Origin: a virus
Taxonomy: Duplodnaviria > Heunggongvirae > Uroviricota > Caudoviricetes
Reading direction: 5' to 3' (one strand)
DNA: 64,000 nucleotides
Virus record (IMG/VR): IMGVR_UViG_3300002835_005179
Span: 1 to 64,000 of that record
Within the stretch, counting starts at the first letter, position 1. Each line of letters opens with the position of its first letter. Shown here one piece after another: positions 9,650-59,891 of the stretch. Position numbers and translations under genes: made by a program. The notes under the pieces were generated by a model that saw nothing but the letters and a program-made list of their open reading frames with translations, did no database searches and was not told where the DNA came from.

Positions 9650-10801
9650 ATGGAAAACAAACAAGATCCATTTGATTCAATCTTCGAAGGCATCGATCTT
9701 CCGGAAGATTTTGCTGCTAAGTTGAAGAAAGCATTCGACGATGCAGTTGATGAAAAATTAAAACAAGCAACTAAAGGTGTTATGAAAACTGAAGAGGAAG
9801 AGGAGATTGTTCATCTAGAATCCGAAGGTGAGATGGAAGATGATGAGGAAGAAGTTGTAGAACAAGACGAATCTAAAACATATTCTCTTGAAGATATCAG
9901 AGCACTATTAACTGATATCGATATCGTCAGATTACTACAATCTTCAGACGTAGAAAGAACAAAATTCTTAAATTCTATGCGTGCTGCAGTTACAGATCTA
10001 TCTGGCAACAGTATAGCAGAACCGTTCTTATCTCTAGTCATGAGTATTATACAAGTGATCGCAGATGATTCTAGAATTTCTACTATGATTGCAAGAGAAC
10101 TTAAAGATATGGAAACTGAGAAAAGCTCAGAAGAGCCAGCTGATAACATGAATCAAGTTAAAGTTAATGCTGAACTTGAAGTTTATGAAAATGTTATCGA
10201 ATCAGTAGATAAGTATCTAACTTATGTTGCTGAATCGTGGATCGAAGAAAACGCTCTAGCTGTTGAACAAGGTCTAAAGATTGAGATCATGGAATCTTTC
10301 TGGAATGGATTAAAGACTCTATACGTCGAAAATAATATTGTTCTACCAGAAGAAATTAATGTTGTTGAAGATCTAAATACAAAAATTGCCGATCTAGAAT
10401 CAACTCTTTCTGAGGAAAAGCAAGCATTTGCTGAAGAATTATCTAAGCAAAAGGCTCAATATGAAGAAAAGATAAACGAAGAAATTAATAGATCAATTGT
10501 ATACAAAAACAAAGCAGAAGAATCTACTAAGAAAGCTGTATTTGAATCAGTTTCAAAGGATCTATCTCTTTCACAAAAAGAAAGATTTGCGAAGTTAACA
10601 GAATCTGTAACTTATGAATCAAAGAAATCTTACGAAGAAAAGTTGAAAGATATTGTTAAGAATGCGTTCGATTCTTCTAAACCAAAGAAGAAATTGACCG
10701 AAGAATCAATGATTGAAGTATCTGAAGAAAATACAATTATTTCTGAAGATCCTATCATGAACCTTTATTCTCAAGCAATTTCTAAGAATGTCAAGTTTTA
10801 A
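9650..10801 (+). CDS. gp22: Prohead scaffolding protein (gp22-like)
   Basis: 383 aa, very acidic, with coiled-coil-type composition. Lies between the protease and the major capsid gene. Confidence 0.7.
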   Translation: MENKQDPFDSIFEGIDLPEDFAAKLKKAFDDAVDEKLKQATKGVMKTEEEEEIVHLESEGEMEDDEEEVVEQDESKTYSLEDIRALLTDIDIVRLLQSSDVERTKFLNSMRAAVTDLSGNSIAEPFLSLVMSIIQVIADDSRISTMIARELKDMETEKSSEEPADNMNQVKVNAELEVYENVIESVDKYLTYVAESWIEENALAVEQGLKIEIMESFWNGLKTLYVENNIVLPEEINVVEDLNTKIADLESTLSEEKQAFAEELSKQKAQYEEKINEEINRSIVYKNKAEESTKKAVFESVSKDLSLSQKERFAKLTESVTYESKKSYEEKLKDIVKNAFDSSKPKKKLTEESMIEVSEENTIISEDPIMNLYSQAISKNVKF

Positions 10802-10806
10802 TTTTT

Positions 10807-10814
10807 TATAAATA
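10807..10814 (+). promoter_or_regulatory. T4-type late promoter TATAAATA
   Basis: Exact TATAAATA 31 nt upstream of the capsid gene, followed by AAGGAG. Confidence 0.6.
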
Positions 10815-10844
10815 CTATTATAAATTTATTTCTTAAGGAGAAAT

Positions 10845-12104
10845 ATGTCTAATCTACAAAACAAATGGAAAGCGATTCTGGAACACCCAGAAGCTGCTCC
10901 AATTAAGGACGCTTACAGAAAGCAAGTAACTGCAGTTCTTTTAGAAAACCAAGAAAAGGCTCTAGCAGAATCAAGAAAGATCATCACTGAATCTGGTGTT
11001 CCATCAAACGTTGCAGGAAACGTTGATAAGTTTGATCCAATTCTAATTGCTCTAGTTCGTAGATCTATGCCAAATCTAATGGCTTATGATATCTGCGGCG
11101 TTCAGCCAATGAACATGCCAACAGGTTTGATCTTCGCAATGAAGTCAAAGTATGGTTCAGGCGCAACTGGTCCTCTATCTTCAACTGAAGCTCTATTCAA
11201 TGAAGCAGATACTGACTTCTCTGGAACTGGTACTCACCAAGATAATATCTTTAGAACTTCTTCAGATACACTATCTACTTATGGTACTGGTATGGCAACT
11301 GCAGACGGCGAAGGTTTCTCACCACTAAACATGGGTTTCTCTATCGAGAAGGTAACAGTTACTGCAAAGACTCGTGCTCTAAAGGCAGAATACTCTCTAG
11401 AATTGGCACAAGACCTAAAGGCTATGCACAATCTAGATGCAGAATCTGAGCTATCTAACATCCTATCAACTGAAATCATGGCAGAAATCAACCGTGAAGT
11501 TATCAGAACTCTATACAAGATTGCAAAGTCTGGTGCATCTTCTGGTACAACTACAGCAGGTTATTTCGATCTTGATACAGATTCTGACGGACGTTGGTCA
11601 GTTGAAAGATTCAAGGGTCTAATGTTCCATGCTGAAAGAGAAGCAAACCAAATTGCAAAGGCAACTCGTAGAGGAAAGGGTAATATCATTATCTGCTCTT
11701 CTGACGTAGCATCTGCTCTAGCAATGGCAGGCAAGCTAGATTATACTCCAGCTCTATCTACTGATCTAAACGTCGACGATACTGGTAATACATTTGCTGG
11801 TGTTCTAAACGGCAAGTACAAGGTCTATGTTGATCCATACTTCGCAGTAGGTTCTGGCGTAACATTCTCTGACGTCATGGTTGTTGGGTACAAGGGATCT
11901 AACGCTTATGACGCTGGTTTATTCTACTGCCCATACGTTCCATTACAAATGGTCAAGGCAGTTGATCCAGATACATTCCAGCCAAAAATAGGTTTCAAGA
12001 CCCGCTACGGCATGGTCGCAAACCCACTATCTGGCGACGGAAACACTCTAGGTGCAGCTTCCAACGATTATTATAGACTCGTCAAAATTAAAAATATTCT
12101 CTAA
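10845..12104 (+). CDS. gp23: Major capsid protein (gp23-like)
   Basis: 419 aa. The N-terminal propeptide-like region and the block VRRSMPNLMAYDICGVQPM are typical of T4 gp23. Confidence 0.9.
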   Translation: MSNLQNKWKAILEHPEAAPIKDAYRKQVTAVLLENQEKALAESRKIITESGVPSNVAGNVDKFDPILIALVRRSMPNLMAYDICGVQPMNMPTGLIFAMKSKYGSGATGPLSSTEALFNEADTDFSGTGTHQDNIFRTSSDTLSTYGTGMATADGEGFSPLNMGFSIEKVTVTAKTRALKAEYSLELAQDLKAMHNLDAESELSNILSTEIMAEINREVIRTLYKIAKSGASSGTTTAGYFDLDTDSDGRWSVERFKGLMFHAEREANQIAKATRRGKGNIIICSSDVASALAMAGKLDYTPALSTDLNVDDTGNTFAGVLNGKYKVYVDPYFAVGSGVTFSDVMVVGYKGSNAYDAGLFYCPYVPLQMVKAVDPDTFQPKIGFKTRYGMVANPLSGDGNTLGAASNDYYRLVKIKNIL

Positions 12105-15040: not shown

Positions 15041-15956
15041 AATTACTCTCCTTAAGAATTTTCATTAGAGCCAAATCTTTTGCTTTTGTTTCTAGATCAA
15101 GATAGAAATCTTTTCCATAATCATCAGGAAGCGAATTAATATAATCAGAGTGAGCAGTTCGATTACATACAATTCCTTCATGAATCGCTTTTGATTCTGA
15201 ATAATGGAATAGAGGAACCTCTTTCCAAGTAGAGAAAGCCATATCGAATGCTTCTTCTTCAGTTAATTCATATTCATTACCATTATATAACGAATGATGG
15301 AAGAAGTCAAACGTCAGAGGAATTCCAATCTTCGAGTGAATATCCAAGAATAGATGAGATGTAGAATATGACGATTGTTTATCATCATTCTCCACAACAA
15401 GTCTCTTCTTCATACTATCAGATAATCTTCCAAAGTTTGCACAGAATCGATCGGAAGTCTCTTCGGAATAAGACATTCCAACATGGATATTAATTGGATA
15501 AAATTCACTGGCCTCAAGACCCATATGATTCATGATAGAATTGTGAATCTCTAAATCTTTGATCGAATTTAGAACAACATTCTCTTTCATCGATCCCAAC
15601 TTAACAAATGGACCAGGATGAAATGATAATCTCATATCATAATATTTTGCCAAAGACCCAATATCTTGTAGGATGCTTTTAATTTTCGACCAATCAGGAA
15701 GATCTTCGAATACATATTCTGAAGCCCAAGGAAACATCTCGGAAGACATGCGGAAATTCTTAATCTTATTCTGGCCATTCCAATCTACAATCCTGAGTAG
15801 ATCTGACACGTTCTGAACAATAAGATCCGACGCATAATCTATTCCTTTTGTGAGGAATGTATCTTTGCGCATGGTTCTATTAGAAGTAAGTCCTAATGAT
15901 TTCTGGAGAGTAAGATTAATGCAACAATATCCAGGATAAATCACAATTGATCCCAA
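15030..15956 (-). CDS. uvdE: UV damage endonuclease (UvdE)
   Basis: GYCCINL, SFHPGPF, INIHVG, VVENDDK and FDFFHH blocks align with the UvdE family. Confidence 0.85.
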   Translation of the reverse strand: MGSIVIYPGYCCINLTLQKSLGLTSNRTMRKDTFLTKGIDYASDLIVQNVSDLLRIVDWNGQNKIKNFRMSSEMFPWASEYVFEDLPDWSKIKSILQDIGSLAKYYDMRLSFHPGPFVKLGSMKENVVLNSIKDLEIHNSIMNHMGLEASEFYPINIHVGMSYSEETSDRFCANFGRLSDSMKKRLVVENDDKQSSYSTSHLFLDIHSKIGIPLTFDFFHHSLYNGNEYELTEEEAFDMAFSTWKEVPLFHYSESKAIHEGIVCNRTAHSDYINSLPDDYGKDFYLDLETKAKDLALMKILKESNYAS

Positions 15957-16360
15957 CCTTCTGTTTCAAGAGTATAATATACTTTCTTGATATCAAATTC
16001 AAATATTGCCCGCATACAACCAGAACAAGGTTTCGCCAACCCATAGACTATACTATTAGTCAAAATATCATACTTAACACGACAAACATATAGACTAACT
16101 TTCTTGAAATCTTCTACATCTATTTGTCTCAATGCATTCTTAATTGCAGATATCTCTGCGTGTAGATAGATAGACAGATCTTTGTTTGTTGCATATTTAG
16201 CTTGGAGTGGAGATGATTTCATAGAATTTACTCCAACCGAAACTATCTTGTTTTTGTAAACAATAGCGGCAGCAAGTTTAGCGCCAGAAACTTTCGGATT
16301 AGCTATCGCTATTTGTTTGAGGAGAGAAAAGACTCTAGAGATCTTCAGCTCAGATTCCAT
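15941..16360 (-). CDS. Cytidine/deoxycytidylate deaminase-family protein
   Basis: Zinc motifs HAE (LHAEISAI) and PCSGC. Confidence 0.8.
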   Translation of the reverse strand: MESELKISRVFSLLKQIAIANPKVSGAKLAAAIVYKNKIVSVGVNSMKSSPLQAKYATNKDLSIYLHAEISAIKNALRQIDVEDFKKVSLYVCRVKYDILTNSIVYGLAKPCSGCMRAIFEFDIKKVYYTLETEGWDQL

Positions 16361-16366
16361 ACATTA

Positions 16367-16395
16367 AGTATACCGTATCCGACGGGTAAAGTCAA
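16367..16395 (-). promoter_or_regulatory. Sigma70-like promoter TTGACT-N17-TATACT placed 6 nt before ATG
   Basis: Minus strand reads GCTTGACTttacccgtcggatacggTATACTtaatgtATG. Confidence 0.55.
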
Positions 16396-16913: not shown

Positions 16914-17790
16914 ATAAACTATCCAATTCTTCTTTCGCAATTTCAGCCATCCAATCAATAACGTCAATAACTTCGACATTATCAGAAATACCAGACTCTG
17001 TGAAAGAATTTGTTGTGTAGATCTTATCAAAGTATTTCGATAGATCATCGAATCCTTTCGAGAAGATTCCGTGTGTCACAAACAACCGAAGATTTGGGAT
17101 CTGCAACTTTTCAGCAATACCCAAGAAAGTTCCACCACCATCACAGATATCGTCGATGATATAAGAATTTCGTGTCGTGTCTTTGATTACTGGAACTTCG
17201 AAACCAAGAAATCTGCCAGTAACAGGATCACGTTTCTTTTTGCAGTAATATTTCGGATGATTATCGGAAAGCATATCAGCATATCTATTCTTCGCACCTT
17301 CATCCGGAAAGATAATATTTGCTTCAGGATCAGTTACAAGAATTTCTTGAATAATCTTATTAATCGGAATATCTTTATACTCATAATCAAACCTGTTAGA
17401 ATGACAATCTAAAGTATAGATTTTTGCATATGGCCAGACGCAGGTAATGATATTCAAGAAAACTTTCTTACCGAGACAATCTCCTTCTACGAAGCGACGA
17501 TCGGCTCTTGAATATGGAAGATAAGGAATCACAACAGCAATATTATTGGATGGCATAGACAAAGTAATATCGTTGATTGCATCTTGCAACAGAAGCAACT
17601 TCATTACATCATCGGAATTCTTAATTCGATGAATTAAGACAACACCAAAACACGAAGTCAATGCTTTGATAGTTTCGGGTTTGAGGCGAACCTGAAGTTC
17701 GCCTCCTGGATACTTAAACCACTCGTACGAATTTTCGTCGATACGCAATACATTACGATTGGACACGAACACGCTCCTTAATGGTTTCAA
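16906..17790 (-). CDS. prs: Ribose-phosphate pyrophosphokinase (PRPP synthetase)
   Basis: PRPP-binding loop IIDDICDGGGTF and length 294 aa. Confidence 0.8.
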   Translation of the reverse strand: MKPLRSVFVSNRNVLRIDENSYEWFKYPGGELQVRLKPETIKALTSCFGVVLIHRIKNSDDVMKLLLLQDAINDITLSMPSNNIAVVIPYLPYSRADRRFVEGDCLGKKVFLNIITCVWPYAKIYTLDCHSNRFDYEYKDIPINKIIQEILVTDPEANIIFPDEGAKNRYADMLSDNHPKYYCKKKRDPVTGRFLGFEVPVIKDTTRNSYIIDDICDGGGTFLGIAEKLQIPNLRLFVTHGIFSKGFDDLSKYFDKIYTTNSFTESGISDNVEVIDVIDWMAEIAKEELDSLYV

Positions 17791-19228
17791 ACTTCACTTT
17801 ATTCAGTATACCGTCTTTCAAGATGCAAGTCAAGTCGCAATTTTCAAGTTCTTCGAGAGTCGCTTCTTCCTTACAAATCCAGTTGTTATTTTCTGGAGTC
17901 CAATCTGGAGCCTTGTAGACAGCAAGAATACCTTTACGAGATTTCTTCATTCCAGAATCAGTCTTTGGATCCTTAAAGATAGGAATGATTTTTCCATCTT
18001 TTTCGATAGCAGTCGCCTTCATTGCGAATCCGAAAGTGTCTCTTGTGACATACTCATAAGTATATGACCCGACACCAAACACCATATTATATGGTGAGAT
18101 CTTCAATTTCTCAACGATGCCAGATAGAATCTGGCGTGCACGATCCAACGTAATCGAATCACCATAGATACAACCTGCTTTGTTGATCATACGATTATGA
18201 TCCAAACCAAAAACTTCTTTCAGAAGAGCCAAGACACCAAGATCAGCTGGTCCATTACCTCGTTCTTGAATGCTAGAATTATTCTTGCCTAGTACAATCT
18301 CAACAGGATCACCGGAATCAGGACGAATAACAATCTTACCGTTACGAGCAATGATTTTATCTTTCAAACGAGGCATGAAGTCTGTTAGAACAGTCCACAG
18401 ATCCCAAGTATCAGAAACGATCGAAACGATTCCTTCTGGATAGATATCTTCAACTAGACGACGGAAAGTTTCAAATTCGTCTTCTTTACCACCAGCACAC
18501 ATAACAGAGTGCTCTGTAGCAGGAACAGAAGAACCTGTCGTAGCAATGTTTGCATCATAATAATGCTCAGCTGCTAGAATAGCAGGGATAGTATCAGTTC
18601 CATTGAACGATAGAAGGTGACCCATACCAGAAGCTACTGCATCACCTAGAGACGACATACCACGCATGGAGAAATCGTGGAATTGATAATCGATGAAACC
18701 AAAATCAGTCTCTCCTGCTTTTCGTGCCCATTCCATACCAATCTTACGATATTCAAGAGCAGTCGTTGCCGAAGTGTATGGTTTCCAAATAGATAGAGAA
18801 AGAATCGTTTCTAGGAAATTAGGAAGCCAGAAAGCGTGGTCGACTGTATTGTAAATGACAAGAGATGGAATTCCAATATTAACCGAATATCCTTCCGGAA
18901 TTGCGTAGATGTTAATAGGAAGACGTCCTTCATCATGAAGTGCCTTGATGTGGTCTGTTTTGGGATTCTGAATTCCAAGAGTTTTAGAGATTACACGGAC
19001 ATATTCTGCTTCTACTTCGATCCAAGGTACAGAGAAAAAGCTATTATCGAATTCCTTCAGAAGATCAAGTAGAAAATACTGGTGTCCAAAAACAACAATT
19101 TTTTCAATACCAGGGACACGAGATTTTCGTGCAGTCCAATTTGAGTAGACTCGTGTCACTCCTTCTGGATATTGGCGAACGTGATCAATCTTGTAGAAGT
19201 CTGCTAAGAGAACTGGGATGGTGTTCAT
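17753..19228 (-). CDS. nadV: Nicotinamide phosphoribosyltransferase (NAMPT/NadV)
   Basis: N-terminus NTIPVLLADFYKIDHVRQYP and the block FHDFSMRGMSS. Start set at MNTIP (19228). Confidence 0.85.
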   Translation of the reverse strand: MNTIPVLLADFYKIDHVRQYPEGVTRVYSNWTARKSRVPGIEKIVVFGHQYFLLDLLKEFDNSFFSVPWIEVEAEYVRVISKTLGIQNPKTDHIKALHDEGRLPINIYAIPEGYSVNIGIPSLVIYNTVDHAFWLPNFLETILSLSIWKPYTSATTALEYRKIGMEWARKAGETDFGFIDYQFHDFSMRGMSSLGDAVASGMGHLLSFNGTDTIPAILAAEHYYDANIATTGSSVPATEHSVMCAGGKEDEFETFRRLVEDIYPEGIVSIVSDTWDLWTVLTDFMPRLKDKIIARNGKIVIRPDSGDPVEIVLGKNNSSIQERGNGPADLGVLALLKEVFGLDHNRMINKAGCIYGDSITLDRARQILSGIVEKLKISPYNMVFGVGSYTYEYVTRDTFGFAMKATAIEKDGKIIPIFKDPKTDSGMKKSRKGILAVYKAPDWTPENNNWICKEEATLEELENCDLTCILKDGILNKVKFETIKERVRVQS

Positions 19229-19480: not shown

Positions 19481-19570
19481 TTCAGTTTAATATTCCTTTC
19501 AATCGGTACATACCCATTATAGCGTACTGAGTCAAGCATGTAAAGGTTTTCTAGAAAAAATAAAAAAAAA

Positions 19571-19680
19571 AAAGAATATCTCCTTTATTTTCAATATCTT
19601 ACTGCAAACTATTGATTCTAAAGAGAATATTCTTTCGAAAAAAACTTGCTTCGGTTGAATGGATAAGGTATAATGGTTCT
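19571..19680 (+). promoter_or_regulatory. Conserved promoter cassette, copy A (GAATAT-box, TCAAT..ATTGA dyad, TTGCTT-N17-TATAAT-N6-ATG)
   Basis: Aligns over about 110 nt with 41130-41236 and the reverse complement of 63877-64000. -35 at 19646-19651, -10 at 19669-19674, ATG at 19681. Confidence 0.65.
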
Positions 19681-19911
19681 ATGAAAAGGAAAACTGTTCG
19701 GGTGACTGATGTTGTCGATACTGTGAATCGAATTTTAGATGTTTCCACGTGTTCTGTCGATACTCGCTGGGGCATGATTGCTGTTCTTGAACAGATTCTT
19801 CACGACTCAGGAAATTACAAGGGATATAATAATGTCAAAGACGGAAAGATTTGTGGATACAAAGAACAGCCTGATGACACGAGACGATATTATTATGGCG
19901 GGACGAAGTAA
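19681..19911 (+). CDS. Hypothetical protein (76 aa)
   Basis: The ATG at 19681 lies exactly 6 nt after TATAAT. The track ORF uses an upstream TTG inside the promoter cassette. Confidence 0.5.
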   Translation: MKRKTVRVTDVVDTVNRILDVSTCSVDTRWGMIAVLEQILHDSGNYKGYNNVKDGKICGYKEQPDDTRRYYYGGTK

Positions 19912-20421: not shown

Positions 20422-20607
20422 ATGAAGAAATCAATTTACAAAAGAAATATTGGGTCTAGGTCTTGGTCTGGGTCTAGGTCTTGGTCTTGGTCTGGGTCTT
20501 GGTCTGGGTCTTGGTCTGAGTCTAGGTCTAGGTCTGAGTCTAGGTCTAGGTCTGAGTCTAGGTCTGGGTCTGGGTCTGGGTCTTGGTCTTGGTCTAGGTC
20601 TAACTAA
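20422..20607 (+). CDS. Ser-Xaa dipeptide-repeat small protein, copy 1 (61 aa)
   Basis: Leader MKKSIYKRNIG, then (S-[RWGE])n encoded by (TCTNGG)n, ending RSN-TAA 4 nt before the next ATG. Confidence 0.5.
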   Translation: MKKSIYKRNIGSRSWSGSRSWSWSGSWSGSWSESRSRSESRSRSESRSGSGSGSWSWSRSN

Positions 20608-20611
20608 AAAT

Positions 20612-20854
20612 ATGATAAAGAAATCAATTTACAAAAGAAATATTGGGTCTTGGTCTAGGTCTGGGTCTAGGTCTGGGTCTGAGTCTAGGTCTGAGTCTTG
20701 GTCTTGGTCTGGGTCTGAGTCTAGGTCTGAGTCTGGGTCTTGGTCTAGGTCTTGGTCTGAGTCTTGGTCTAGGTCTGGGTCTGGGTCTAGGTCTAGGTCT
20801 AGGTTTAGGTCTGGGTCTAGGTCTAGGTTTAGGTTTAGGTCTGGGTCTAACTAA
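20612..20854 (+). CDS. Ser-Xaa dipeptide-repeat small protein, copy 2 (80 aa)
   Basis: Leader MIKKSIYKRNIG plus the repeat, ending GSN-TAA. Confidence 0.5.
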   Translation: MIKKSIYKRNIGSWSRSGSRSGSESRSESWSWSGSESRSESGSWSRSWSESWSRSGSGSRSRSRFRSGSRSRFRFRSGSN

Positions 20855-20858
20855 AAAT

Positions 20859-21083
20859 ATGATAAAGAAATCAATTTACAAAAGAATTATTTGGTCTAGG
20901 TCTGGGTCTGAGTCTGGGTCTAGGTCTTGGTCTGAGTCTGGGTCTTGGTCTTGGTCTTGGTCTTGGTCTGAGTCTTGGTCTGGGTCTAGGTCTTGGTCTG
21001 GGTCTGGGTCTTGGTCTTGGTCTGGGTCTGAGTCTGGGTCTTGGTCTAGGTCTAGGTCTGGGTCTAGGTCTGGGTCTAACTAA
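20859..21083 (+). CDS. Ser-Xaa dipeptide-repeat small protein, copy 3 (74 aa)
   Basis: Leader MIKKSIYKRIIW plus the repeat, ending GSN-TAA. Confidence 0.5.
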   Translation: MIKKSIYKRIIWSRSGSESGSRSWSESGSWSWSWSWSESWSGSRSWSGSGSWSWSGSESGSWSRSRSGSRSGSN

Positions 21084-24145: not shown

Positions 24146-24220
24146 GCGCTTGTAGCATAATGGTAATGTAGAAGATTCTAAACCTTCGAGATGAGAGTTC
24201 GATTCTCTCCAAGCGCACCA
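24146..24220 (+). tRNA. tRNA with anticodon CUA (amber suppressor type), CCA encoded
   Basis: - Acceptor stem GCGCTTG/CAAGCGC.
- D arm GCAT-AATGGTA-ATGT.
- Anticodon stem GAAGA/CCTTC with one A-C mismatch, loop TT-CTA-AA.
- Variable region GAGAT.
- T arm GAGAG-TTCGATT-CTCTC.
- Discriminator A followed by CCA. Confidence 0.8.
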
Positions 24221-24492: not shown

Positions 24493-24512
24493 AATCTCCC
24501 GTTTCATTTTTT
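24482..24512 (+). terminator. Rho-independent terminator
   Basis: CGGGAGA-gtaaaa-TCTCCCG followed by TTTCATTTTTT. Confidence 0.7.
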
Positions 24513-24520
24513 TATAAATA
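24513..24520 (+). promoter_or_regulatory. T4-type late promoter TATAAATA
   Basis: Exact TATAAATA 20 nt upstream of the ATG at 24540. Heads the 24.5-33.3 kb operon. Confidence 0.6.
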
Positions 24521-24539
24521 CTCTTGGAGTATAATAGTC

Positions 24540-24770
24540 ATGTTCACAATTAATTCAGCAACCAATCCTAATGATCGAAATCTTAATAATTATTATCTAA
24601 AACATTTTAAAAATAATAATAAATTGTCTCAAGAATTGAAGAAACAAATAACACCAAAACTTATTTCTGATGCTATCAAAGAAGCAATATCACAATCAAA
24701 AAAAACCAAGGACAAGGGATATAAATTAGAATTCACAATCGACGGTATAAAACCCGTAGAGGAACAGTAA
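24540..24770 (+). CDS. Hypothetical protein (76 aa)
   Basis: Track ORF, first gene after the late promoter. Joined to the next gene by a TAATG overlap. Confidence 0.5.
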   Translation: MFTINSATNPNDRNLNNYYLKHFKNNNKLSQELKKQITPKLISDAIKEAISQSKKTKDKGYKLEFTIDGIKPVEEQ

Positions 24771-44012: not shown

Positions 44013-44077
44013 ATAAGCTACCTCCCAAGTAGTTTGTGTGTTCAGATGGGAGAAAGCGAACACTTTCTCCCCATAAT

Positions 44078-44085
44078 TATTTATA
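44078..44085 (-). promoter_or_regulatory. T4-type late promoter TATAAATA (minus strand)
   Basis: Exact match on the minus strand upstream of the homing endonuclease gene. The hairpin GGAGAAAG..CTTTCTCC (44049-44070) lies between the promoter and the ribosome-binding site. Confidence 0.5.
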
Positions 44086-44108
44086 AAAATATATTCTTGA
44101 CTATTTTA

Positions 44109-45062: not shown

Positions 45063-46463
45063 TTAGAATTTGAAATTATCGAAGTTCTTCTTATATTTCG
45101 AAGAACCATATCCTGAATCAAATTCACCATAATTATTATCCTGATAAGGATCTTGAATACCACCTTCTCCATCAATCTGAATATCACCGATATCAAATAA
45201 TCTCATCTTAGATCTATCAATACCAACCAAGAATTTCTTATTCTTAGTCACATCATTATATCTATTCTTCAACTGTTTAATCATCAACTGACCAAGTTTT
45301 TCTAATTCTTCTGTATTAATTAGAGCAATCATGAAATCGCAAGTGGCGGCGACGCCGAAACTTTCTGCAATATCACCCATACCAGCATCAGAATCAGACG
45401 CTCCAGATCTCGTAAATTGTGATGCGGATACGATCGGAAGATTAGCTTCTACAGCAAGACCACGAACTTCTTCAGCAATAGACTTAACCAACATATAAGA
45501 ATTTACTTGACCGTTATTCTTAATTCTTGAAGAAGCACAAATATTCAAATAATCAATATAGATAATATCTGGAATAAACTTCTTCTTTAGAGCAAGTTCA
45601 TGTAGAAGATATCTGAAGTGTGATACGTTGGCTGAACCAGTTGGATATTCCTTGATAACCAACTTGCCTGGTGTTCGACTTTCTAACTTATTAATTAGTG
45701 ATAAGAATTGTTTCTTAGAAATTTGTTTTAGAGTATCTAAGGTAATATCCAATAGATTCGCATCAATTCTCTCGGCGATTCTTTCTTCAGCCATTTCACA
45801 TGTAATATACAAAACATTCTTACCATCAAGAACATTAGAAGCTGCCATATGACACATCGCCAAAGTTTTTCCAGCATTAACACCACCAAGAATTAAGTTT
45901 AGCGTTTTTCTCGGAAGTCCTCCACCAGTAATAAGATTTAAATTCTGGATATCAAAACGAATTCTCTCTTCTTTCTTATGATAAAATTCAAATCTTGTTT
46001 CTGCATCAGAAACAAAATCATGACCAACTGATGGATCGAATGTAATTGCAAGAGCTTCTTTAAGAATTTCAGGAATAGAACCTTTATCTCTAGTATCTTT
46101 TTCATCAGATATAATCTTAATAGAATCTAAGATTGCATTATGCAATGATTTTTCTTTACAAAATGATTCAGTCTGTTTGATCAAGAATTTTAAATCAGTT
46201 TGCTCATTCTTCGACCAAGAATCTAATAGATTAGATATTACTTCTGAGTCTTCAATTTTAATCTTCTTAGATTCAGAAGTCATAATCTTAATAGCTTCTA
46301 CGGAAGCTTGTTTATTATATTCTGTGACAAACGAATTAATGAATTTAAATATACTTCTATCATTATGATCCGAAAAATATTCAGACTTTAGAAAGGGTAA
46401 TACTGATCTAGTATATTCTTCGTTATGTAAGAGATTCTTTAAAACCAAATGTTCAATTTTCAT
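45063..46463 (-). CDS. gp41: Replicative DNA helicase (gp41, DnaB-like)
   Basis: Walker A GGVNAGKTLAM and DnaB-type blocks. Start set at MKIEHL (46463), preceded by AGGAGAA. The longer track ORF reads into the degenerate repeat. Confidence 0.9.
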   Translation of the reverse strand: MKIEHLVLKNLLHNEEYTRSVLPFLKSEYFSDHNDRSIFKFINSFVTEYNKQASVEAIKIMTSESKKIKIEDSEVISNLLDSWSKNEQTDLKFLIKQTESFCKEKSLHNAILDSIKIISDEKDTRDKGSIPEILKEALAITFDPSVGHDFVSDAETRFEFYHKKEERIRFDIQNLNLITGGGLPRKTLNLILGGVNAGKTLAMCHMAASNVLDGKNVLYITCEMAEERIAERIDANLLDITLDTLKQISKKQFLSLINKLESRTPGKLVIKEYPTGSANVSHFRYLLHELALKKKFIPDIIYIDYLNICASSRIKNNGQVNSYMLVKSIAEEVRGLAVEANLPIVSASQFTRSGASDSDAGMGDIAESFGVAATCDFMIALINTEELEKLGQLMIKQLKNRYNDVTKNKKFLVGIDRSKMRLFDIGDIQIDGEGGIQDPYQDNNYGEFDSGYGSSKYKKNFDNFKF

Positions 46464-46896: not shown

Positions 46897-47064
46897 TTAA
46901 TTTCCAGACCTAGACCAAGACCTAGACCTAGACCTAGACCAAGACTCAGACCTAGACTCAGACCTAGACCAAGACCCAGACCTAGACCTAGACCTAGACC
47001 AAGACCAAGACCAAGACCCAGACCTAGACCAAATAATTCTTTTGTAAATTGATTTCTTTATCAT
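46897..47064 (-). CDS. Ser-Xaa dipeptide-repeat small protein (55 aa)
   Basis: MIKKSIYKRIIW leader plus a (TCTNGG)n repeat, ending SGN-TAA. Confidence 0.5.
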   Translation of the reverse strand: MIKKSIYKRIIWSRSGSWSWSWSRSRSRSGSWSRSESRSESWSRSRSRSWSRSGN

Positions 47065-47068
47065 ATTT

Positions 47069-47275
47069 TTAGTTAGACCTAGACCCAGACCTAGACCTAG
47101 ACCAAGACTCAGACCTAGACCCAGACCAAGACCAAGACCCAGACCCAGACCAAGACCTAGACCTAGACCCAGACCAAGACCCAGACCCAGACCCAGACCC
47201 AGACCAAGACCAAGACCCAGACTCAGACCTAGACCTAGACCCAATATTTTTTTTGTAAATTGATTTCTTTATCAT
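47069..47275 (-). CDS. Ser-Xaa dipeptide-repeat small protein (68 aa)
   Basis: MIKKSIYKKNIG leader plus the repeat, ending RSN-TAA 4 nt before the next ATG. Confidence 0.5.
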   Translation of the reverse strand: MIKKSIYKKNIGSRSRSESGSWSWSGSGSGSGSWSGSRSRSWSGSGSWSWSGSRSESWSRSRSGSRSN

Positions 47276-47289
47276 ATTACAATTATAAC

Positions 47290-47628
47290 TTATTTTGTAA
47301 TATTAGTCAACTGGGAATCATTTGCATGCAAAATAGCATATTCTAATATCTTCTTAATTAATTTCTTGACAATTTGAATCAGAGTTTTATCATTACTGGA
47401 TACATTATTGGGAGAGTACACAACTGTCATATCAAACGTCAATATAGAAGAATCTTCTTCTTCACAAGTTATATCTGTTATTTCTATAATAGTTTCTTTA
47501 TGTTTTCCTTCATCTAATCTCAATAATATCTTTTCGTTATTGTTGTGTTCTGTAATAAAGAACGATGCTTTCATATCTGAAAATGGTACTATCTTATATG
47601 ATTCTTCTTTTTGTTTAGTATTTTTCAT
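47290..47628 (-). CDS. Hypothetical acidic protein (112 aa)
   Basis: Track ORF lying between UvsX and the repeat genes. Confidence 0.45.
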   Translation of the reverse strand: MKNTKQKEESYKIVPFSDMKASFFITEHNNNEKILLRLDEGKHKETIIEITDITCEEEDSSILTFDMTVVYSPNNVSSNDKTLIQIVKKLIKKILEYAILHANDSQLTNITK

Positions 47629-48739: not shown

Positions 48740-51253
48740 TTAGTCGAAAAACGAATCAAGAGTTGATTTGTTTTCTAATGACCAAGAAATTGCATCTAAA
48801 ATAGTAGAAATAGGTTCTATAAAAGTCTTTTGAAATTGTAAATTGTAATCTATAAATTCATGTAATTTAAGTTCCGGAGGAAGAATTGAATTGAAAGAAA
48901 TTATATTCTCTCGAATCATATTCGGTTCTTTAAGATACAAGAATTTAATCTTTTCTCCTTCGTGGATCTCAGTATACTTCTTTAGAAGATCATTCTTTTT
49001 CAAGAGATTGTTGTAAACAAGTGAACCTCTTACATGTATTGGAGTTCCTTTTGTATAGATAGAAATATTAGATGAATATGTTTTTAGATTATTAACACCT
49101 CTGGGAAATGCAATATCTTCTGGAGAAAGCGAAAGAAATTCTTTTTTTACATTATCAATATATTCACGCAAATCAGACTCATTCGATTTCATGATAATTT
49201 TAATTGCTTCTTTAATTTTACCACGACAAAATTTTGGAGTTGAAGATTTAACAGCTTCAATACCCATGATTTTCATTTTTGGTTCTGAATATCTTACTCC
49301 TTCTGAATCATAAACATTTAACATATATCTTTTCTTTGCCGTCCAAATACCACGATCGGCGATCGATTCTCTCTTCATAATCATTTTCTGTGAGTATGAA
49401 TTTAGATAATCAGCTAGATCTTCATAAGAATCATTAATTATTTTCTGAAGTTGTTCTTTGCATATTTTATCTAGAAGATCAACTGTCTGTTCGTTAGTCT
49501 TATTGGGAAAGAATTTGTTTACTAGATCTTGAAGATCTAAATATGCCGAGTCCGTATCTATTGCGATAACATAATCTTTATTCGTTTTTAATATATTTCT
49601 TAGATATCCATTCAATCTATTAGAAACCCAACGAATAGCCAATTGGCCAGATACAGTAATTGATTCTGCAATTCTCTTATCTGAGAATCTAAAATATCTA
49701 TTGGCAATTGCACCATAAGCTGAATTCAATGCAATCTTCTTAGCCATCTGCAGATTCTTATACTTTGAGATATCATTCAGAATTTGCTTAGTATCTTCAC
49801 CAGTCTTATTTGCGGATTCTAAATCTTTTTCCGCTTGAATCATTTTTGACTTATAAATCTTACGTTGTTCGAACATCCAGGACATGAGCTGTGTCAAAAA
49901 TCCATCCTTATCTCTACGATACAATTGTCCTGTCGCAGACATTGAGAAATTATTTTTCTTTAAATCTGATAGATCTATCTCCTTAGATAACAATTTATCT
50001 ACAGAAATACCAGGAATAATCTTATCTATAATTGTGTCCGGAGAAAAATTCCCGCCCATAATAAGATGAGGGTACAGCGATTGTAAATCGAAAGAAACTA
50101 CCCAATTATAGAATCCAGGTCTGGGTTCTTTTACATAAGCTCCTTCAATTTCTTCTTTAATTGATTCTTGTCTTTCAGGAATAACATAACCTCTTGAAAG
50201 TAGATGATTGTAAATAATAACATCCCACATTCTAATTTGAGAGAATACGTCATCGAAATTGACTTTTGCGTCATAAGCCATAGTCATAGCCAACTCGATT
50301 AATTTCATCTTATTTTCAAGAGAAACAACTAAATCCACATCTTTCGCATTGTATTCGAGAAATTTATTATAATCTTCTTTATAAAGAAGGTGAAGAGAAC
50401 CATACTCAGAATAATCTAATTTATTTTCACCAAGTTCAACAGAAGCAATATAATCTAATTTATAAGATTCCTGAGCAGAGTAAGTGAATTTCTTATAGAG
50501 ATCTAGATAATCAAGAACAGAGATACCGAACATATCATATGTCTGGACTTTCTTACCCATAATTTCAATAGTCTCTTCACGTAAGATTTTCCATGGCGAA
50601 AGATTCTTTGCCTTGGCTTCACCAAATACACGTGTAATTCTATTGATTAGATAGGGAATATCGAAGAATTTAACGTGCCATCCCGAAACAACATCAGGAT
50701 AATTCGATTTCCAAACCTTCAAGAATTTCTCTAGTAATATCTCTTCAGATTCACAAGGAAGATATATCGCATCGGTCAAATTTCCTGTGAAATGATCAAA
50801 TCCCAATACAATCTTTTTCTCTAGATTAGAAAATTTAATTGTAATGGCATTAATTTCTTCAATGGCATTTGAAATAGAAGGAAATCCATTCTCACAAGTA
50901 CATTCGATATCTATATATGCAACCACAATATCTTCGGTTTTCCATTGTATATCACTGTTAGTGTTTTGTGATATCCATTGATATTGTGGTTGTATATTAC
51001 CATATACTGAGAAATTACCAACATCCTTATTGCGTGCGATAAATTCTCTTGTTTCTTTTACATTCCCAGCATCAAATTCAATAACAGGATATTCATCTAA
51101 GTTCTTAAATTCCGATACTGTATTTGGTGAAGAGGCAGGAATCCAGATTCTAGGATGAAAATCATTTATCCTATCTTGTTCTCGCTTCCTGTCCTCAACA
51201 TAACGAACATATAAAGTATTTCCCCAAGATTGAACATTAGTATAATATTTCAT
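48740..51253 (-). CDS. gp43: Family B DNA polymerase (gp43)
   Basis: Exo I YIDIECTC, SLYPHLIMG, KIALNSAYGA and AIDTDSAYL. Confidence 0.9.
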   Translation of the reverse strand: MKYYTNVQSWGNTLYVRYVEDRKREQDRINDFHPRIWIPASSPNTVSEFKNLDEYPVIEFDAGNVKETREFIARNKDVGNFSVYGNIQPQYQWISQNTNSDIQWKTEDIVVAYIDIECTCENGFPSISNAIEEINAITIKFSNLEKKIVLGFDHFTGNLTDAIYLPCESEEILLEKFLKVWKSNYPDVVSGWHVKFFDIPYLINRITRVFGEAKAKNLSPWKILREETIEIMGKKVQTYDMFGISVLDYLDLYKKFTYSAQESYKLDYIASVELGENKLDYSEYGSLHLLYKEDYNKFLEYNAKDVDLVVSLENKMKLIELAMTMAYDAKVNFDDVFSQIRMWDVIIYNHLLSRGYVIPERQESIKEEIEGAYVKEPRPGFYNWVVSFDLQSLYPHLIMGGNFSPDTIIDKIIPGISVDKLLSKEIDLSDLKKNNFSMSATGQLYRRDKDGFLTQLMSWMFEQRKIYKSKMIQAEKDLESANKTGEDTKQILNDISKYKNLQMAKKIALNSAYGAIANRYFRFSDKRIAESITVSGQLAIRWVSNRLNGYLRNILKTNKDYVIAIDTDSAYLDLQDLVNKFFPNKTNEQTVDLLDKICKEQLQKIINDSYEDLADYLNSYSQKMIMKRESIADRGIWTAKKRYMLNVYDSEGVRYSEPKMKIMGIEAVKSSTPKFCRGKIKEAIKIIMKSNESDLREYIDNVKKEFLSLSPEDIAFPRGVNNLKTYSSNISIYTKGTPIHVRGSLVYNNLLKKNDLLKKYTEIHEGEKIKFLYLKEPNMIRENIISFNSILPPELKLHEFIDYNLQFQKTFIEPISTILDAISWSLENKSTLDSFFD

Positions 51254-51285
51254 ATTACTAATTATACTATATTATTTGTTATTTG

Positions 51286-51918
51286 TCAAGTAATTTGTAT
51301 CTTAGATGAGAAGTCATTTACTTTTGCAAGCAGAGACGCACCATATCCGGAATCTAGATTAAGTCCTCTGCCACCAATTACTTGTGTTACTGCTCTATCT
51401 GCATCGGCTTGATTTGTGAATTGTATTTTTCCAGATAATCCAACCAATACAAATTTAACAGAAATAATTGCAGAAATATTTCTATCAGTTACCAACAGAT
51501 CTGGATCTTGGATAATATTGAATCCACATAGATCACCATACGTTTTATAATTTGATCTACCAGTTAATTGGATGTATCCTCTCCCACGATAAGTCCAACC
51601 ATCTCCTGGATTAACATTACCCATTCCCCTACCAATAACATTGGTATTTCCATAAATCAATTCAGCAAATTCTTGTGGATTGCATTTTATTCTTGACAAT
51701 TCTGAATCTGACAATCGATAAACCCTAGAACCAAATATAGATTTGATTCTAGAATTATCTGTTTTACAATAATTTAGATTTTCTTCTTTTGGGATTAAAC
51801 CACACTCTTTATATGCATTGGATATTATCGCTTTTTTTAAAAAATCACATTTAATACCGCAAGCTACACATGCATCTAATATTGGTTGTATAAGTTGTTT
51901 ATCCATATCTATGTCCAA
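51286..51918 (-). CDS. GH19-like lysozyme (endolysin candidate)
   Basis: GDGWTYRGRGYIQLTGRSNYKTYG matches the GH19 core. Confidence 0.65.
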   Translation of the reverse strand: MDIDMDKQLIQPILDACVACGIKCDFLKKAIISNAYKECGLIPKEENLNYCKTDNSRIKSIFGSRVYRLSDSELSRIKCNPQEFAELIYGNTNVIGRGMGNVNPGDGWTYRGRGYIQLTGRSNYKTYGDLCGFNIIQDPDLLVTDRNISAIISVKFVLVGLSGKIQFTNQADADRAVTQVIGGRGLNLDSGYGASLLAKVNDFSSKIQIT

Positions 51919-58172: not shown

Positions 58173-59176
58173 GAAAATATATTATTATATTGTCTTCGTA
58201 CCTTAATGAATTTTTGTTTGCCAATGAACTCCGTTAGATTTGATGCACCAACATATGTACAAGCTGACCTCAATCCACCAAGAATATCAAGAACGGTTTC
58301 TTCTAGAGGTTTAGTGTGTTTATATAGATCTACTCGTTTCCCTTCAGAAGTTTTGTAATTTGAAACGCCACCAGAATACTTATCCATAGCATCTTTCGAT
58401 GACATACCATAGAATGTAGTTCCAGTTTCATTATGACCAGCAAACATTCCACCTAACATAACAAATCTAGCTCCGGCTCCAAAAGCTTTTGCAACATCTC
58501 CTGGAGATGTGCATCCACCATCAGATACAACATCATACACATCATTAAGATTCAGTAGAGCCGAGAATTGTGGAACCCCAATTCCTGTTTTAATTCTTGT
58601 AGTACATACAGATCCAGATCCAATACCAAATTTAATGAAGTCGGCTCCAACACTAACCAACGACTGGCATCCTCTATTAGTAACAACGTTCCCGGCCATA
58701 ATGAATTTATCTGAAAATCTTCTTCTAAATTTAGAAACACATTCATGAAATGCTTGTGTATATCCATTTGCAACATCTAAACAGATAAATTTAATTTTCG
58801 GATCATATTCCAAGATCTCAGATATATTCTGTAATTCTTTTTCTGAAATCCCGGCAGAGATACCGATATACTCTGAATCGTATTCGTGCTTCTTGAAATC
58901 TTCGACAGTATAAAACTTATGAAGTATTGTCAACATCTTAAATTTTGATAAGACACGTTCTACTTCAAAAGTTCCAATAACATCCATGTTAGATGCACAA
59001 ATAGGAATTCCGGACCAAACCAAATTACCATTAGTATATCTTACTTCTAGATTCACATCCGATCTAGAATTAACTTTTGTGAGTGTATTATTAGGACGAA
59101 TCAGAACGTCACAGAAATCTAGATATTCTTCTAATTCTTCCGTCTTACTTGCATAATGAGATTCTTCACCTATCAT
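58169..59176 (-). CDS. guaC: GMP reductase (GuaC)
   Basis: GIGSGSVCTTRIKTGIGVPQ and VSDGGCTSPGDVAKAFGAGARFVMLGGMFAGH closely parallel GuaC. Length is 335 aa. Confidence 0.85.
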   Translation of the reverse strand: MIGEESHYASKTEELEEYLDFCDVLIRPNNTLTKVNSRSDVNLEVRYTNGNLVWSGIPICASNMDVIGTFEVERVLSKFKMLTILHKFYTVEDFKKHEYDSEYIGISAGISEKELQNISEILEYDPKIKFICLDVANGYTQAFHECVSKFRRRFSDKFIMAGNVVTNRGCQSLVSVGADFIKFGIGSGSVCTTRIKTGIGVPQFSALLNLNDVYDVVSDGGCTSPGDVAKAFGAGARFVMLGGMFAGHNETGTTFYGMSSKDAMDKYSGGVSNYKTSEGKRVDLYKHTKPLEETVLDILGGLRSACTYVGASNLTEFIGKQKFIKVRRQYNNIFS

Positions 59177-59878: not shown

Positions 59879-59891
59879 TATTGTTTTCTTT

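Follow-up and report, generated by a model that had tools for sequence, protein, structure and literature searches.

Promoters abutting start codons suggest leaderless early mRNAs in an uncultivated T4-like phage

Our analysis points to leaderless mRNAs for promoter-proximal early genes of a T4-like phage. In about half of what appear to be its strong early promoters of sigma-70 type, the last T of the -10 box is followed at 6-8 nt by the A of an ATG, the position where transcription would normally start. We consider leaderless mRNAs the probable and best explanation of this arrangement, from which we infer promoter activity, position of the transcription start, early timing and the route of translation. 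The gene layout itself is real and of an already known kind, found here in a new phage lineage.

The DNA analysed (hereafter the window) comprises 64,000 nt, positions 1-64,000 of the record IMGVR_UViG_3300002835_005179 (Caudoviricetes), and its source is an uncultivated T4-like myovirus. The phage genome has a G+C content of 34%; a megablast search of 50,697 phage records with the region returned no match, and the closest cultured relatives are cyanophages, with ∼50% identity of DNA polymerase. A TonB-dependent receptor hints at a host from Bryobacteraceae/Acidobacteriota, and the two-piece tmRNA, which found no match in phage records, is of the alphaproteobacterial type. Recoding of TAG, an idea that came from a CUA tRNA, was dropped: 13 of 92 ORFs end in TAG, and TAG read-through lengthens ORFs by merely 4-23 codons.

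The promoter sites and the genes behind them are listed below in window positions, minus-strand sites being read on the minus strand.

16358-16395, minus strand: dCMP deaminase promoter; -35 TTGACT 16395-16390, 17-nt spacer, ATACGG 16378-16373, -10 TATACT 16372-16367, N6 taatgt, ATG 16360-16358
15941-16360, minus strand: dCMP deaminase gene
41015-41051, minus strand: promoter of the 254-aa protein (phrog_5855); -35 TTGATT 41051-41046, 16-nt spacer, -10 TATACT 41029-41024, N6 gaatgt, ATG 41017-41015
40253-41017, minus strand: gene of the 254-aa protein (phrog_5855)
63116-63231, minus strand: promoter at ATG 63196; -35 TTGATA 63231-63226, 17-nt spacer, -10 TATACT 63208-63203, N6 attaat, ATG 63196-63194
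62175-63116, minus strand: polynucleotide kinase gene
19646-19683, plus strand: TATAAT-type promoter; -35 TTGCTT 19646-19651, -10 19669-19674, ggttct, ATG 19681
19681-19911, plus strand: ORF of 76 aa at ATG 19681
41203-41239, plus strand: TATAAT-type promoter, divergent partner of the 41017 promoter; -35 TTGATT 41203-41208, -10 41225-41230, ggttat, ATG 41237
41237-41626, plus strand: ORF of 129 aa at ATG 41237
41018-41236, both strands: divergent control region, two overlapping copies of a ∼130-nt cassette, one per strand
63874-63911, minus strand: TATAAT-type promoter; -35 TTGCTC 63911-63906, -10 63888-63883, ggttgt, ATG 63876
63628-63876, minus strand: ORF of 82 aa at ATG 63876
51251-51289, minus strand: DNA polymerase gp43 promoter; consensus TTGACA-N17-TATAAT, hexamers at 51289-51284 and 51266-51261
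48740-51253, minus strand: DNA polymerase gp43 gene; N7 tagtaat between -10 and ATG 51253, no upstream Shine-Dalgarno
39309-39345, minus strand: DUF6915 protein promoter; TTGACT-N17-TATAAT-aaatt (N5)-ATG 39311, gene 38916-39311
47273-47310, minus strand: promoter of a hexamer-repeat ORF; TTGACT-N17-TATAAT-tgtaat (N6)-ATG 47275
59927-59965, minus strand: weaker promoter; CTGACT-N18-TAGAAT-tagcat (N6)-ATG 59929, ORF of 81 aa at 59684-59929
17766-17833, minus strand: leadered ATACGG-like promoter; -35 TTGACT 17833-17828, AGACGG, -10 TATACT 17810-17805

The first-pass annotation had described three minus-strand sites of the form TTGAnn-N16/17-ATACGGTATACT-N6-ATG, and they are present exactly so at ATGs 16360, 41017 and 63196. 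Its three TATAAT-ggttNt-ATG sites, at 19681 (plus), 41237 (plus) and 63876 (minus), and the divergent promoter pair at 41018-41236 are likewise borne out. The 12-mer ATACGGTATACT occurs as three exact copies and one with a single mismatch against 0.19 expected, a total of four that none of 100 shuffles reached, and TATAATGGTTNTATG is found three times, at 19669-19683 (plus), 41225-41239 (plus) and 63888-63874 (minus), against 0.07 expected. To these six we add four promoters 5-7 nt from an ATG (51253, 47275, 39311 and 59929). ATG 47275 opens an ORF made of (GGTCTN)n hexamer repeats, at their first unit, and the coding status of this ORF is doubtful.

Thus, ten ATGs are located 5-7 nt past a -10 box that has its -35 box at 16-18 nt, and 6 nt is the most frequent -10-to-ATG distance. 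That this geometry exceeds chance, as the first-pass annotation had proposed, follows from the strict promoter-like sites of the window, 7 of 35 of which have an ORF-opening ATG at 5-7 nt (Poisson P∼1.5e-6; ATGs opening ORFs of at least 25 aa, background 0.18 per offset); pooled relatives give 9 of 42 strict sites (P∼2e-7). Viewed from the genes, of the 118 first ATGs in ORFs no shorter than 60 aa, seven have a -10-like hexamer at offset 6, versus ∼1% per offset for all ATGs. In cyanophage Syn9, taken as a negative control, one of 57 strict sites falls at 5-7 nt, and the promoter-to-ATG distance peaks at 22-23 nt. Generic sigma-70 consensus matches show no excess over shuffles in a promoter scan of this AT-rich DNA, and generic promoter and terminator scans, whose counts are at chance level, were excluded from the evidence. 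It is thus the top-scoring sites, together with their distance to the ATG, that carry the signal. Hexamers of these sites match 9-12 of 12 consensus positions and lie 16-18 bp apart, as in sigma-70-type promoters, and A-tracts are present upstream of -35 at the ATG-abutting promoters. By analogy to T4-type phages, we infer recognition by host holoenzyme and early timing.

The start codons differ from those of other genes in their context. All ten promoter-abutting starts are ATG, and the base before them is T in 10 of 10 cases versus 13 of 36 Shine-Dalgarno-led starts (Fisher P = 0.0006), which fits the preference for pyrimidine at -1 and purine at +1 in start-site selection. None of these ATGs has a usable Shine-Dalgarno, even on read-through RNA; the anti-SD duplex energy at the DNA polymerase start is +0.7 kcal/mol, whereas most other genes have AAGGAG-like sites with energies from -6 to -11 kcal/mol. 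Genes that follow TATAAATA late promoters are among those with AAGGAG-type sites. The GG, AAGG or ACGG just upstream of -10 pairs with anti-SD at -4 to -4.8 kcal/mol, ∼13 nt from the ATG, and GG or AAGG there could act as a weak, distant Shine-Dalgarno on read-through RNAs. Eight putative leaderless mRNAs, folded over their initial 40 nt, had a free AUG and energies no different from those of shuffles. At some sites, spacings of 5 and 8 nt imply a transcription start displaced from the A by 1-2 nt. Metagenomes were also scanned for contigs whose 5' end lies at the ATG, which might be assembled transcripts, and gave upstream-extending DNA contigs and chance matches only.

Conservation agrees with this picture. 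Metagenome relatives (numbered with the prefix L) keep the promoter-ATG spacing at the same genes despite differing promoter sequences. For DNA polymerase, where the window was compared with L028-L036 and L063, all nine relatives with 70-99% identity have -10 at 5-7 nt from the ATG; spacers of their promoters are unrelated, discriminators, that of the window included, read tagtaat, atatt, agttact, tgatt, atataat and agatt, and the polymerase N-terminus (M-x-K-I/Y-Y-T-N) is alignable from the ATG. The 254-aa gene has four different promoters, with spacings N6, N6, N6 and N8, its orthologues having TATAAT-ggttat-ATG in L001 and L002, TAGAAT-agaatt-ATG in L003 and TATAAT-ggttctat-ATG in L036. Orthologues of dCMP deaminase carry -10 at N6 (L005-L009, TACAAT-aaaagt-ATG) or N8 (L004), and even distant orthologues of the 129-aa gene in L029, L031 and L035 (31-37% protein identity) retain it at N6. 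In ungapped comparisons codon-like conservation begins precisely at the ATG, with amino-acid and third-position patterns conserved from codon 1, and upstream of it just the -35 and -10 positions are kept.

The claim that promoters abut start codons and so give rise to leaderless mRNAs is thus supported as far as sequence reaches, by the spacing peak, conservation, T at -1 and the lack of Shine-Dalgarno. In the mechanism that we propose, host RNA polymerase holoenzyme would initiate at the A in the T(-1)A(+1) context, and the resulting mRNA would begin with 5'-AUG and lack a Shine-Dalgarno. The promoter-proximal cistron would then be translated leaderless by a ribosome with initiator tRNA that binds the 5'-terminal AUG, and downstream cistrons on the same transcript would use ordinary AAGGAG-type sites.

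The sites with ATACGG had been set apart as a second promoter class; we do not find support for this division. ATACGG/TATACT and ATAAGG/TATAAT fit a single consensus, ATA(A/C)GGTATA(A/C)T, and the two are variants of one promoter family. The 41017 promoter has the ∼130-nt upstream cassette in common with TATAAT sites, and both types are found at orthologous genes: the 254-aa gene has TATACT-gaatgt in the window and TATAAT-ggttat in L001, and the same promoter has gaatgt in L029 and ggttat in L031. One ATACGG-like promoter, at 17810, is leadered. It carries AGACGGTATACT at 17816-17805 (minus strand), with no adjoining ATG, is located within the 3' end of the NAMPT gene and precedes a ∼38-nt 5' UTR with AAGGAG and then GTG 17766 of a PRPP-synthetase-like gene. 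A and C covary at -17 and -8 (ATAA..TATAAT versus ATAC..TATACT); a functional meaning of this was weighed, and the covariation was put down to shared descent because relatives mix both types. Nor does ATACGG form an extended -10, since TG at -15/-14 is absent from all of these sites; sequence before -10 reads (A/C)GG-TATA(A/C)T, and G-14 alone is in common with the extended -10.

Placement of these promoters at the first genes of early units also lacks support. The promoters of 16360 and 63196 occupy the space directly after the upstream stop codon, and no terminator was found before them; read-through transcripts must therefore also exist, and both promoters are as much internal as they are starts of units. 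ATG 63196 opens only a 26-codon hydrophobic ORF (63116-63196, minus strand); its stop TAA (63118-63116) and the polynucleotide kinase ATG overlap as TAATG (63118-63114). Upstream of ATG 63196, TTG 63241 is in frame. The leaderless cistron here would be the 26-codon ORF, and the UAAUG stop/start overlap probably couples translation into the kinase. In the window the kinase itself may have a weak GGTGG site. In L036 the kinase is joined in frame to this same promoter and ATG and so gains a 13-aa extension, and no Shine-Dalgarno was found before the conserved internal Met of this kinase. L036 came via the DNA polymerase search; relatives of the window kinase are 99-100% or 37% identical, and those of the 26-codon ORF only 99-100%.

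Part of the promoter family appears to travel as a repeated cassette of ∼130 nt, which contains palindromes and hairpins with GAATAT motifs, an A-tract, -35, -10 and the ATG. Besides the two copies in the divergent control region, others are found at ∼19560-19683 (plus) and 63874-64000 (minus), four in all. In relatives the 3' end of the cassette precedes different genes, and genes alternate between predicted leaderless and Shine-Dalgarno-led forms. Similar elements, the PeSL (promoter-early stem-loop) cassettes, were described from T4-type phages (Arbiol et al. 2010, PMC2839356; Comeau et al. 2014, PMC4122927). Like PeSLs, the window cassette is repeated and intergenic, combines a strong early promoter resembling the sigma-70 type with an AT-rich tract and a stem-loop or palindrome, precedes small genes of unknown function and may be swapped among loci and genomes. 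However, published PeSLs end with a Shine-Dalgarno followed by the start codon (PMC2839356; PMC4122927), whereas the 3' end of the window cassette consists of -10, 6 nt and ATG; stems of PeSLs are G/C-rich and lie within or beside the promoter, while the A/T-rich GAATAT palindromes of the window lie upstream of -35. We tentatively suggest, as a possible but less likely reading, that a whole lineage of T4-like phages from freshwater uses portable cassettes of promoter plus start codon, PeSL-like but with the Shine-Dalgarno lost, for core replication genes as well.

Several other explanations of the constant spacing have to be weighed. It might be a by-product of copying of a recombination-prone cassette, reflecting shared descent and not selection for leaderless expression. 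The ∼130-nt cassette common to four sites is in line with this, as are ggttNt in three sites, its recurrence at other genes in relatives L001, L031 and L036, and ATACGGTATACTattaatATG, which is identical in L036. We nevertheless judge it improbable, since promoters outside the cassette (the polymerase in six versions, 39311, 47275 and 59929) keep 5-7 nt with unrelated spacers and discriminators. Moreover, a copied cassette that carries the ATG still yields a leaderless gene, so copying explains the spread and not a different function. That promoter-like hexamers and ATGs should fall together by pure chance in AT-rich DNA has next to no credibility: generic consensus matches are indeed as common as in shuffles, but P is ∼1e-6 in the window and ∼2e-7 in relatives, and the spacing is conserved at orthologous genes and absent in Syn9.

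A more serious competitor, though still an unlikely one, assumes mainly longer read-through transcripts on which the A/T-rich, promoter-like stretch is a non-canonical translation signal, with AAGG/ACGG as a distant weak Shine-Dalgarno or an S1-binding enhancer, and resemblance to promoters is secondary. The lack of a terminator between the upstream gene and the promoter at 16360 and 63196, pairing of AAGGT/ACGGT with anti-SD at 13 nt from the ATG (-4 to -4.8 kcal/mol) and the chance-level frequency of generic promoter-like matches in AT-rich DNA all speak for it. Yet the -35 TTGAnn is kept 16-18 nt from -10, also in orthologues of otherwise unrelated sequence, and is preceded by A-tracts. The distance that is conserved is that from -10 to ATG and not from GG to ATG, GG being often absent from the polymerase promoters. 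T at -1 in all ten cases fits start-site selection rather than ribosome binding, and at 41018-41236 neither strand has an upstream gene from which read-through could come. Finally, start codons might be mis-assigned, with true starts downstream behind their own ribosome-binding sites and leaders that merely look coding. At 63196, indeed, the product could be the kinase alone, made from an 80-nt leader with the weak GGTGG site. Elsewhere this is very improbable: at 16360 and 41017 no start codon of the ORF precedes the ATG, the deaminase has no further in-frame start before Met47, conservation patterns run from codon 1, the polymerase N-terminus aligns from the ATG and an independent gene caller made the same start choices, that of 41017 included.

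In bacteria the accepted leaderless signature is that a -10 box precedes the first operon gene by 6-8 nt while internal genes are Shine-Dalgarno-led, and such sets include 'group C' of GeneMarkS-2, TA-led genes (Zheng et al. 2011) and the -10 motif adjoining ORFs in Deinococcus-Thermus (PMC6028130; PMC3160421; PMC12340547). Bacterial group C or TA-led genes and the window both have a TANNNT -10 near the start, no Shine-Dalgarno there and internal genes led by Shine-Dalgarno; the -10-like TANNNT that ends 5-8 nt before the start in 'group C' is found at the ten sites of the window at N5-N7. Leaderless mRNAs, the architecture known from Actinobacteria and Deinococcus, are the best reading of the window layout. 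Differences are evident too: window promoters match the full consensus and have an A-tract and a strong -35, in contrast to the -10-only bacterial ones, and there are about ten of them, of early type, versus a third of all genes in bacterial systems, where leaderless starts were mapped, while those of the window are predicted from sequence.

Among phages, the classic leaderless mRNA is that of lambda cI from PRM, where the sigma-70 start is the A of AUG and there is no Shine-Dalgarno. Lambda has one regulatory gene of the lysogenic state in this form, whereas in the window many lytic-cycle genes, DNA polymerase included, are predicted to be leaderless. Middle and late transcripts of Thermus phage phiYS40 are reportedly leaderless as well (work of Sevostyanova and colleagues, 2007). 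This phage resembles the window phage in making many lytic-phage genes from leaderless mRNAs, as predicted in the latter, but it belongs to another lineage with another promoter type and its host to a phylum where leaderless genes are the norm. Moreover, its leaderless classes are middle and late, while those of the window are sigma-70-type, presumably early, and the late TATAAATA promoters are leadered. The cultured relatives Syn9 and HTVC008M (Kyanoviridae) have the T4-like genome organisation and sigma-70-type early promoters of the window phage. In Pelagibacter phage HTVC008M endonuclease V has TATAAT-N6-ATG and a hypothetical gene TAGGAT-N7-ATG, DNA polymerase and primase are at N12 and N11, and over the 50 kb covered the short-distance pattern does not reach significance. 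Literature on leaderless early genes in T4-like phages, cyanophages and SAR11 phages yielded reference-list mentions only, and we found no report of leaderless genes in Syn9 or HTVC008M.

T4 and its relatives are textbook examples of Shine-Dalgarno-dependent initiation and control, which in T4 includes repression by RegA, cleavage of GGAG sites by RegB and binding of gp43 to its own ribosome-binding site. Early mRNAs that lack a 5' leader, as predicted here for DNA polymerase and others, would be out of reach of these controls. Should the tentative cassette idea hold, any ORF recombined behind the ATG would be expressed at once from a leaderless early mRNA, and DNA polymerase, together with helicase and dUTPase in relatives, would depend on the leaderless route. 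A translational operator of T4 type on the polymerase mRNA would be excluded, a class of messages would be translated independently of Shine-Dalgarno recognition during host takeover, and the PeSL idea of mobile regulatory cassettes would be extended to a form that carries the start codon. For phage metagenomes, gene callers whose start models expect a ribosome-binding site may misplace such starts. About ten natural candidate leaderless promoters make a simple, testable set, and a leaderless T4-like lineage must infect a host that translates 5'-AUG mRNAs well.

The three ATACGG-TATACT promoters that the first-pass annotation had placed six nucleotides before the ATG of leftward genes are all present as described, in addition to TATAAT-ggttNt-ATG at 19681 and 41237 (plus strand) and 63876 (minus strand). 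Scanning the window for -35/-10 pairs and then taking the distance to the next ATG yielded four promoter-abutting ATGs beyond these six. The three former sites and the four new ones are as follows (N5-N8, nucleotides between -10 hexamer and ATG; lower-case letters, those nucleotides).

ATG 16360: -35 TTGACT, spacer 17, ATACGG-TATACT, N6 taatgt; dCMP deaminase
ATG 41017: -35 TTGATT, spacer 16, ATACGG-TATACT, N6 gaatgt; 254-aa protein
ATG 63196: -35 TTGATA, spacer 17, ATACGG-TATACT, N6 attaat; 26-codon ORF
ATG 51253: TTGACA-N17-TATAAT-N7-ATG; DNA polymerase
ATG 47275: -10 to ATG N6
ATG 39311: -10 to ATG N5
ATG 59929: -10 TAGAAT, N6

Both the 12-mer ATACGG-TATACT and TATAATGGTTNTATG are far above chance frequency in the window. 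The shared geometry, too, is beyond chance: 7 of the 35 strict promoter-like sites are followed at 5-7 nt by an ATG whose ORF is 25 aa or longer, against a background of 0.18 per offset (Poisson P~1.5e-6). Conversely, of 118 ATGs that come first in long ORFs, 7 have a -10-like hexamer at offset 6; for all ATGs the figure is about 1% per offset. Generic promoter consensus matches show no enrichment in the AT-rich DNA of the window; the signal comes from the best sites and from how far they lie from the ATG.

The strongest evidence for the predicted leaderless layout is the comparison with loci of related phages, mostly metagenome contigs (L-numbers). The 254-aa gene, which follows TATACT-gaatgt-ATG in the window, has TTGCTT-N17-TATAAT-ggttat-ATG in L001/L002 (78% identity), TTGACA-N17-TAGAAT-agaatt-ATG in L003 and TATAAT-ggttctat-ATG in L036, and dCMP deaminase has GTGACA-N17-TACAAT-aaaagt-ATG in L005-L009 and TATACT-N8-ATG in L004. 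In every relative of 70-99% identity the DNA polymerase ATG lies 5-7 nt behind a -10, with six different spacer and discriminator sequences, and orthologues of the 129-aa gene (ATG 41237) still have N6 at only 31-37% identity. In ungapped comparisons codon-patterned identity begins exactly at ATG, and upstream of it only -35 and -10 positions are conserved. Among the pooled relatives, 9 of 42 strict sites have an ATG at 5-7 nt (P~2e-7). This peak is absent in the control cyanophage Syn9, where promoter-to-ATG distances cluster at 22-23 nt; Pelagibacter phage HTVC008M has some short distances (N6, N7, N11, N12), not significant in the 50 kb examined. A motif common to the early promoters of HTVC008M, aGCTTGACT-N14-TGTGATATAAT, contains a genuine TG extended -10. 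Two starts annotated in this phage, at positions 14857 and 25690 of L115 (HTVC008M 75001-125000), are probably mis-called; they overlap a consensus promoter or lie ahead of one, with a GTG located within TTGACT-N17-TAGGAT and an ATG that overlaps TATAAT. The near-identical variants L119, L128 and L129 (metagenome contigs Ga0315903_10020506, Ga0315901_10011918 and Ga0315902_10013373) have only 13 codons of the 254-aa gene (MEKLTAAEYRQLK, then stop) after the 41017-type promoter, which suggests a frameshift or disrupted allele in part of the population.

The ATACGG-TATACT sites had been taken for a second promoter class, a division that our data do not support. Around the -10, one pattern, ATA(A/C)GGTATA(A/C)T, covers both groups, the ~130-nt block upstream of the 41017 site is also found at the three TATAAT sites, and orthologous genes carry either type across genomes; the related loci L029 and L031 even share one promoter, followed by gaatgt in the first and by ggttat in the second. 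The ATACGG hexamer, which had been proposed as an extended -10, is not of the TGn type, and one promoter resembling it is leadered: this fourth copy of the 12-mer, AGACGGTATACT at 17816-17805, has a good -35 and is followed by a ~38-nt leader with AAGGAG and by GTG 17766. The upstream block is a repeated regulatory cassette.

~19560-19683, plus strand: ~130-nt cassette
41018-41236, both strands: cassette
63874-64000, minus strand: cassette

Upstream of its A-tract and -35 lie GAATAT-containing palindromes, e.g. AGAATATTCT and GAGAATATTCTTCggAAGAATATCTC, and a 9-bp hairpin, AATGACTTG..CAAGTCATT; the cassette may serve a regulator as its operator, or recombination may take place there.

The base before ATG is T at all ten promoter-abutting sites versus 13 of 36 Shine-Dalgarno-led starts (P=0.0006), and also at all sites of relatives in one of the orthologue comparisons. 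Bacterial RNA polymerase prefers to initiate in a T(-1)A(+1) context seven nucleotides past the -10. Most genes of the window have strong AAGGAG-type ribosome-binding sites; no Shine-Dalgarno sequence precedes the promoter-abutting ATGs, even on read-through RNA, and the anti-SD duplex energy at the DNA polymerase ATG is +0.7 kcal/mol. The promoter at 63196 recurs unchanged in L036 as ATACGGTATACT-attaat-ATG; there the ATG continues in frame into the polynucleotide kinase, adding 13 residues to it, and the conserved internal Met lacks a Shine-Dalgarno sequence. The promoter-proximal ATG has therefore been retained as a start while the sequel changes. The accepted mark of leaderless transcription in bacteria is that a transcription unit has a -10 box 6-8 nt ahead of its first gene and Shine-Dalgarno-led genes inside (PMC6028130; PMC3160421; PMC12340547). 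We consider it probable that transcription from these promoters begins at the AUG or no more than 1-2 nt from it, the promoter-proximal cistron being translated without a ribosome-binding site. A scan of metagenomes gave no contigs starting at the ATG.

Systematic leaderless initiation for the first gene of early units, as originally put forward, is thus supported in part, through promoter-to-ATG geometry, conservation, T(-1) and lack of Shine-Dalgarno sequences. ATG 63196 opens only a 26-codon hydrophobic ORF whose stop overlaps the polynucleotide kinase ATG as TAATG, and the leaderless mini-ORF would probably couple translation into the kinase. It is the weakest single case: a GGTGG upstream of the kinase may be a site of its own, and the kinase relatives, 99-100% or 37% identical, leave the mini-ORF putative. 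Since the promoters at 16360 and 63196 occupy the gap directly after the upstream gene's stop codon, with no terminator found in between, "first gene of a unit" is too simple for these two of the three. The layout is confined to sigma-70-type promoters. Genes behind T4-type late promoters (TATAAATA), among them the probable major capsid gene at 10845, have leaders and Shine-Dalgarno sites.

10800-10845: late promoter motif
24500-24540: late promoter motif
44063-44100: late promoter motif
61910-61960: late promoter motif

The 64-kb window (33-38% G+C) encodes T4-type large terminase, tail sheath, rIIA, DNA polymerase gp43, UvsX, gp41-like helicase, RNA ligase, polynucleotide kinase, dCMP deaminase, NAMPT and a PRPP-synthetase-like protein. 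None of 50,697 phage records is a near-identical match, the DNA polymerases of T4-like cyanophages match its own at about 50% identity, and metagenome assemblies contain the same phage and relatives; it is therefore an uncultivated T4-like myovirus. Several further features were observed.

52608-55793, minus strand: TonB-dependent outer-membrane receptor, 1061 aa (CarboxypepD_reg, OMP_b-brl_4)
37828-38207, minus strand: permuted (two-piece) tmRNA gene, alphaproteobacterial type (Rfam RF04321, 99.9 bits; RF01849, 92.9 bits)
24146-24220, plus strand: the only tRNA, anticodon CUA (amber suppressor; tRNA-Pyl per ARAGORN)
20453-21078, plus strand: GGTCTN hexamer array, about 104 copies
46906-47241, minus strand: GGTCTN hexamer array, about 56 copies
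38450-38923, minus strand: ORF beside a DUF6915 gene, with a weak RF-1 (peptidyl-tRNA hydrolase/ArfB-like) match in pre-computed Pfam marks (also locus L022, 4549-4765)

Host leads conflict: the receptor, an unusual auxiliary gene for a phage, points to Bryobacteraceae (best cellular homologues about 48-60% identical, in Bryobacteraceae/Acidobacteriota MAGs; phage-lineage homologues 68-97%), whereas the tmRNA is of alphaproteobacterial type. The latter was not reported by ARAGORN and has no blastn match among phage records. Wholesale TAG recoding, as the CUA tRNA might suggest, is unlikely, since TAG ends 13 of 92 predicted ORFs and readthrough would add only 4-23 codons. The GGTCTN arrays are organised in units each starting ATGATAAAGAAATCAATTTACAAAA; translation in the ATG frame would give (Gly/Arg/Trp/Glu)-Ser repeats up to a TAA, and translation in the +1 frame (Gly-Leu)n, in which the variable base falls at the wobble position. 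A Pfam scan of 38450-38914 gave no hit at all.

The repeated blocks resemble the promoter-early stem-loop (PeSL) cassettes of T4-type phages (PMC2839356; PMC4122927). Published PeSLs, however, end with a Shine-Dalgarno sequence and start codon, while the cassette described here runs from the -10 straight into ATG. We found no report in the literature of leaderless early genes in T4-like phages, and phiKZ is reported to have no leaderless genes. Leaderless phage mRNAs as such are already known, from lambda cI transcribed from PRM and from middle and late genes of Thermus phage phiYS40. The gp41-like helicase and dUTPase-like genes (45063-46463 and 59173-59682, both minus strand) are Shine-Dalgarno-led in the window, and their orthologues in relatives start 6-7 nt after a consensus -10 (L036, L030, L093, L029 and L031). 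Across genomes, orthologous genes thus appear to switch between the Shine-Dalgarno-led and the leaderless state.
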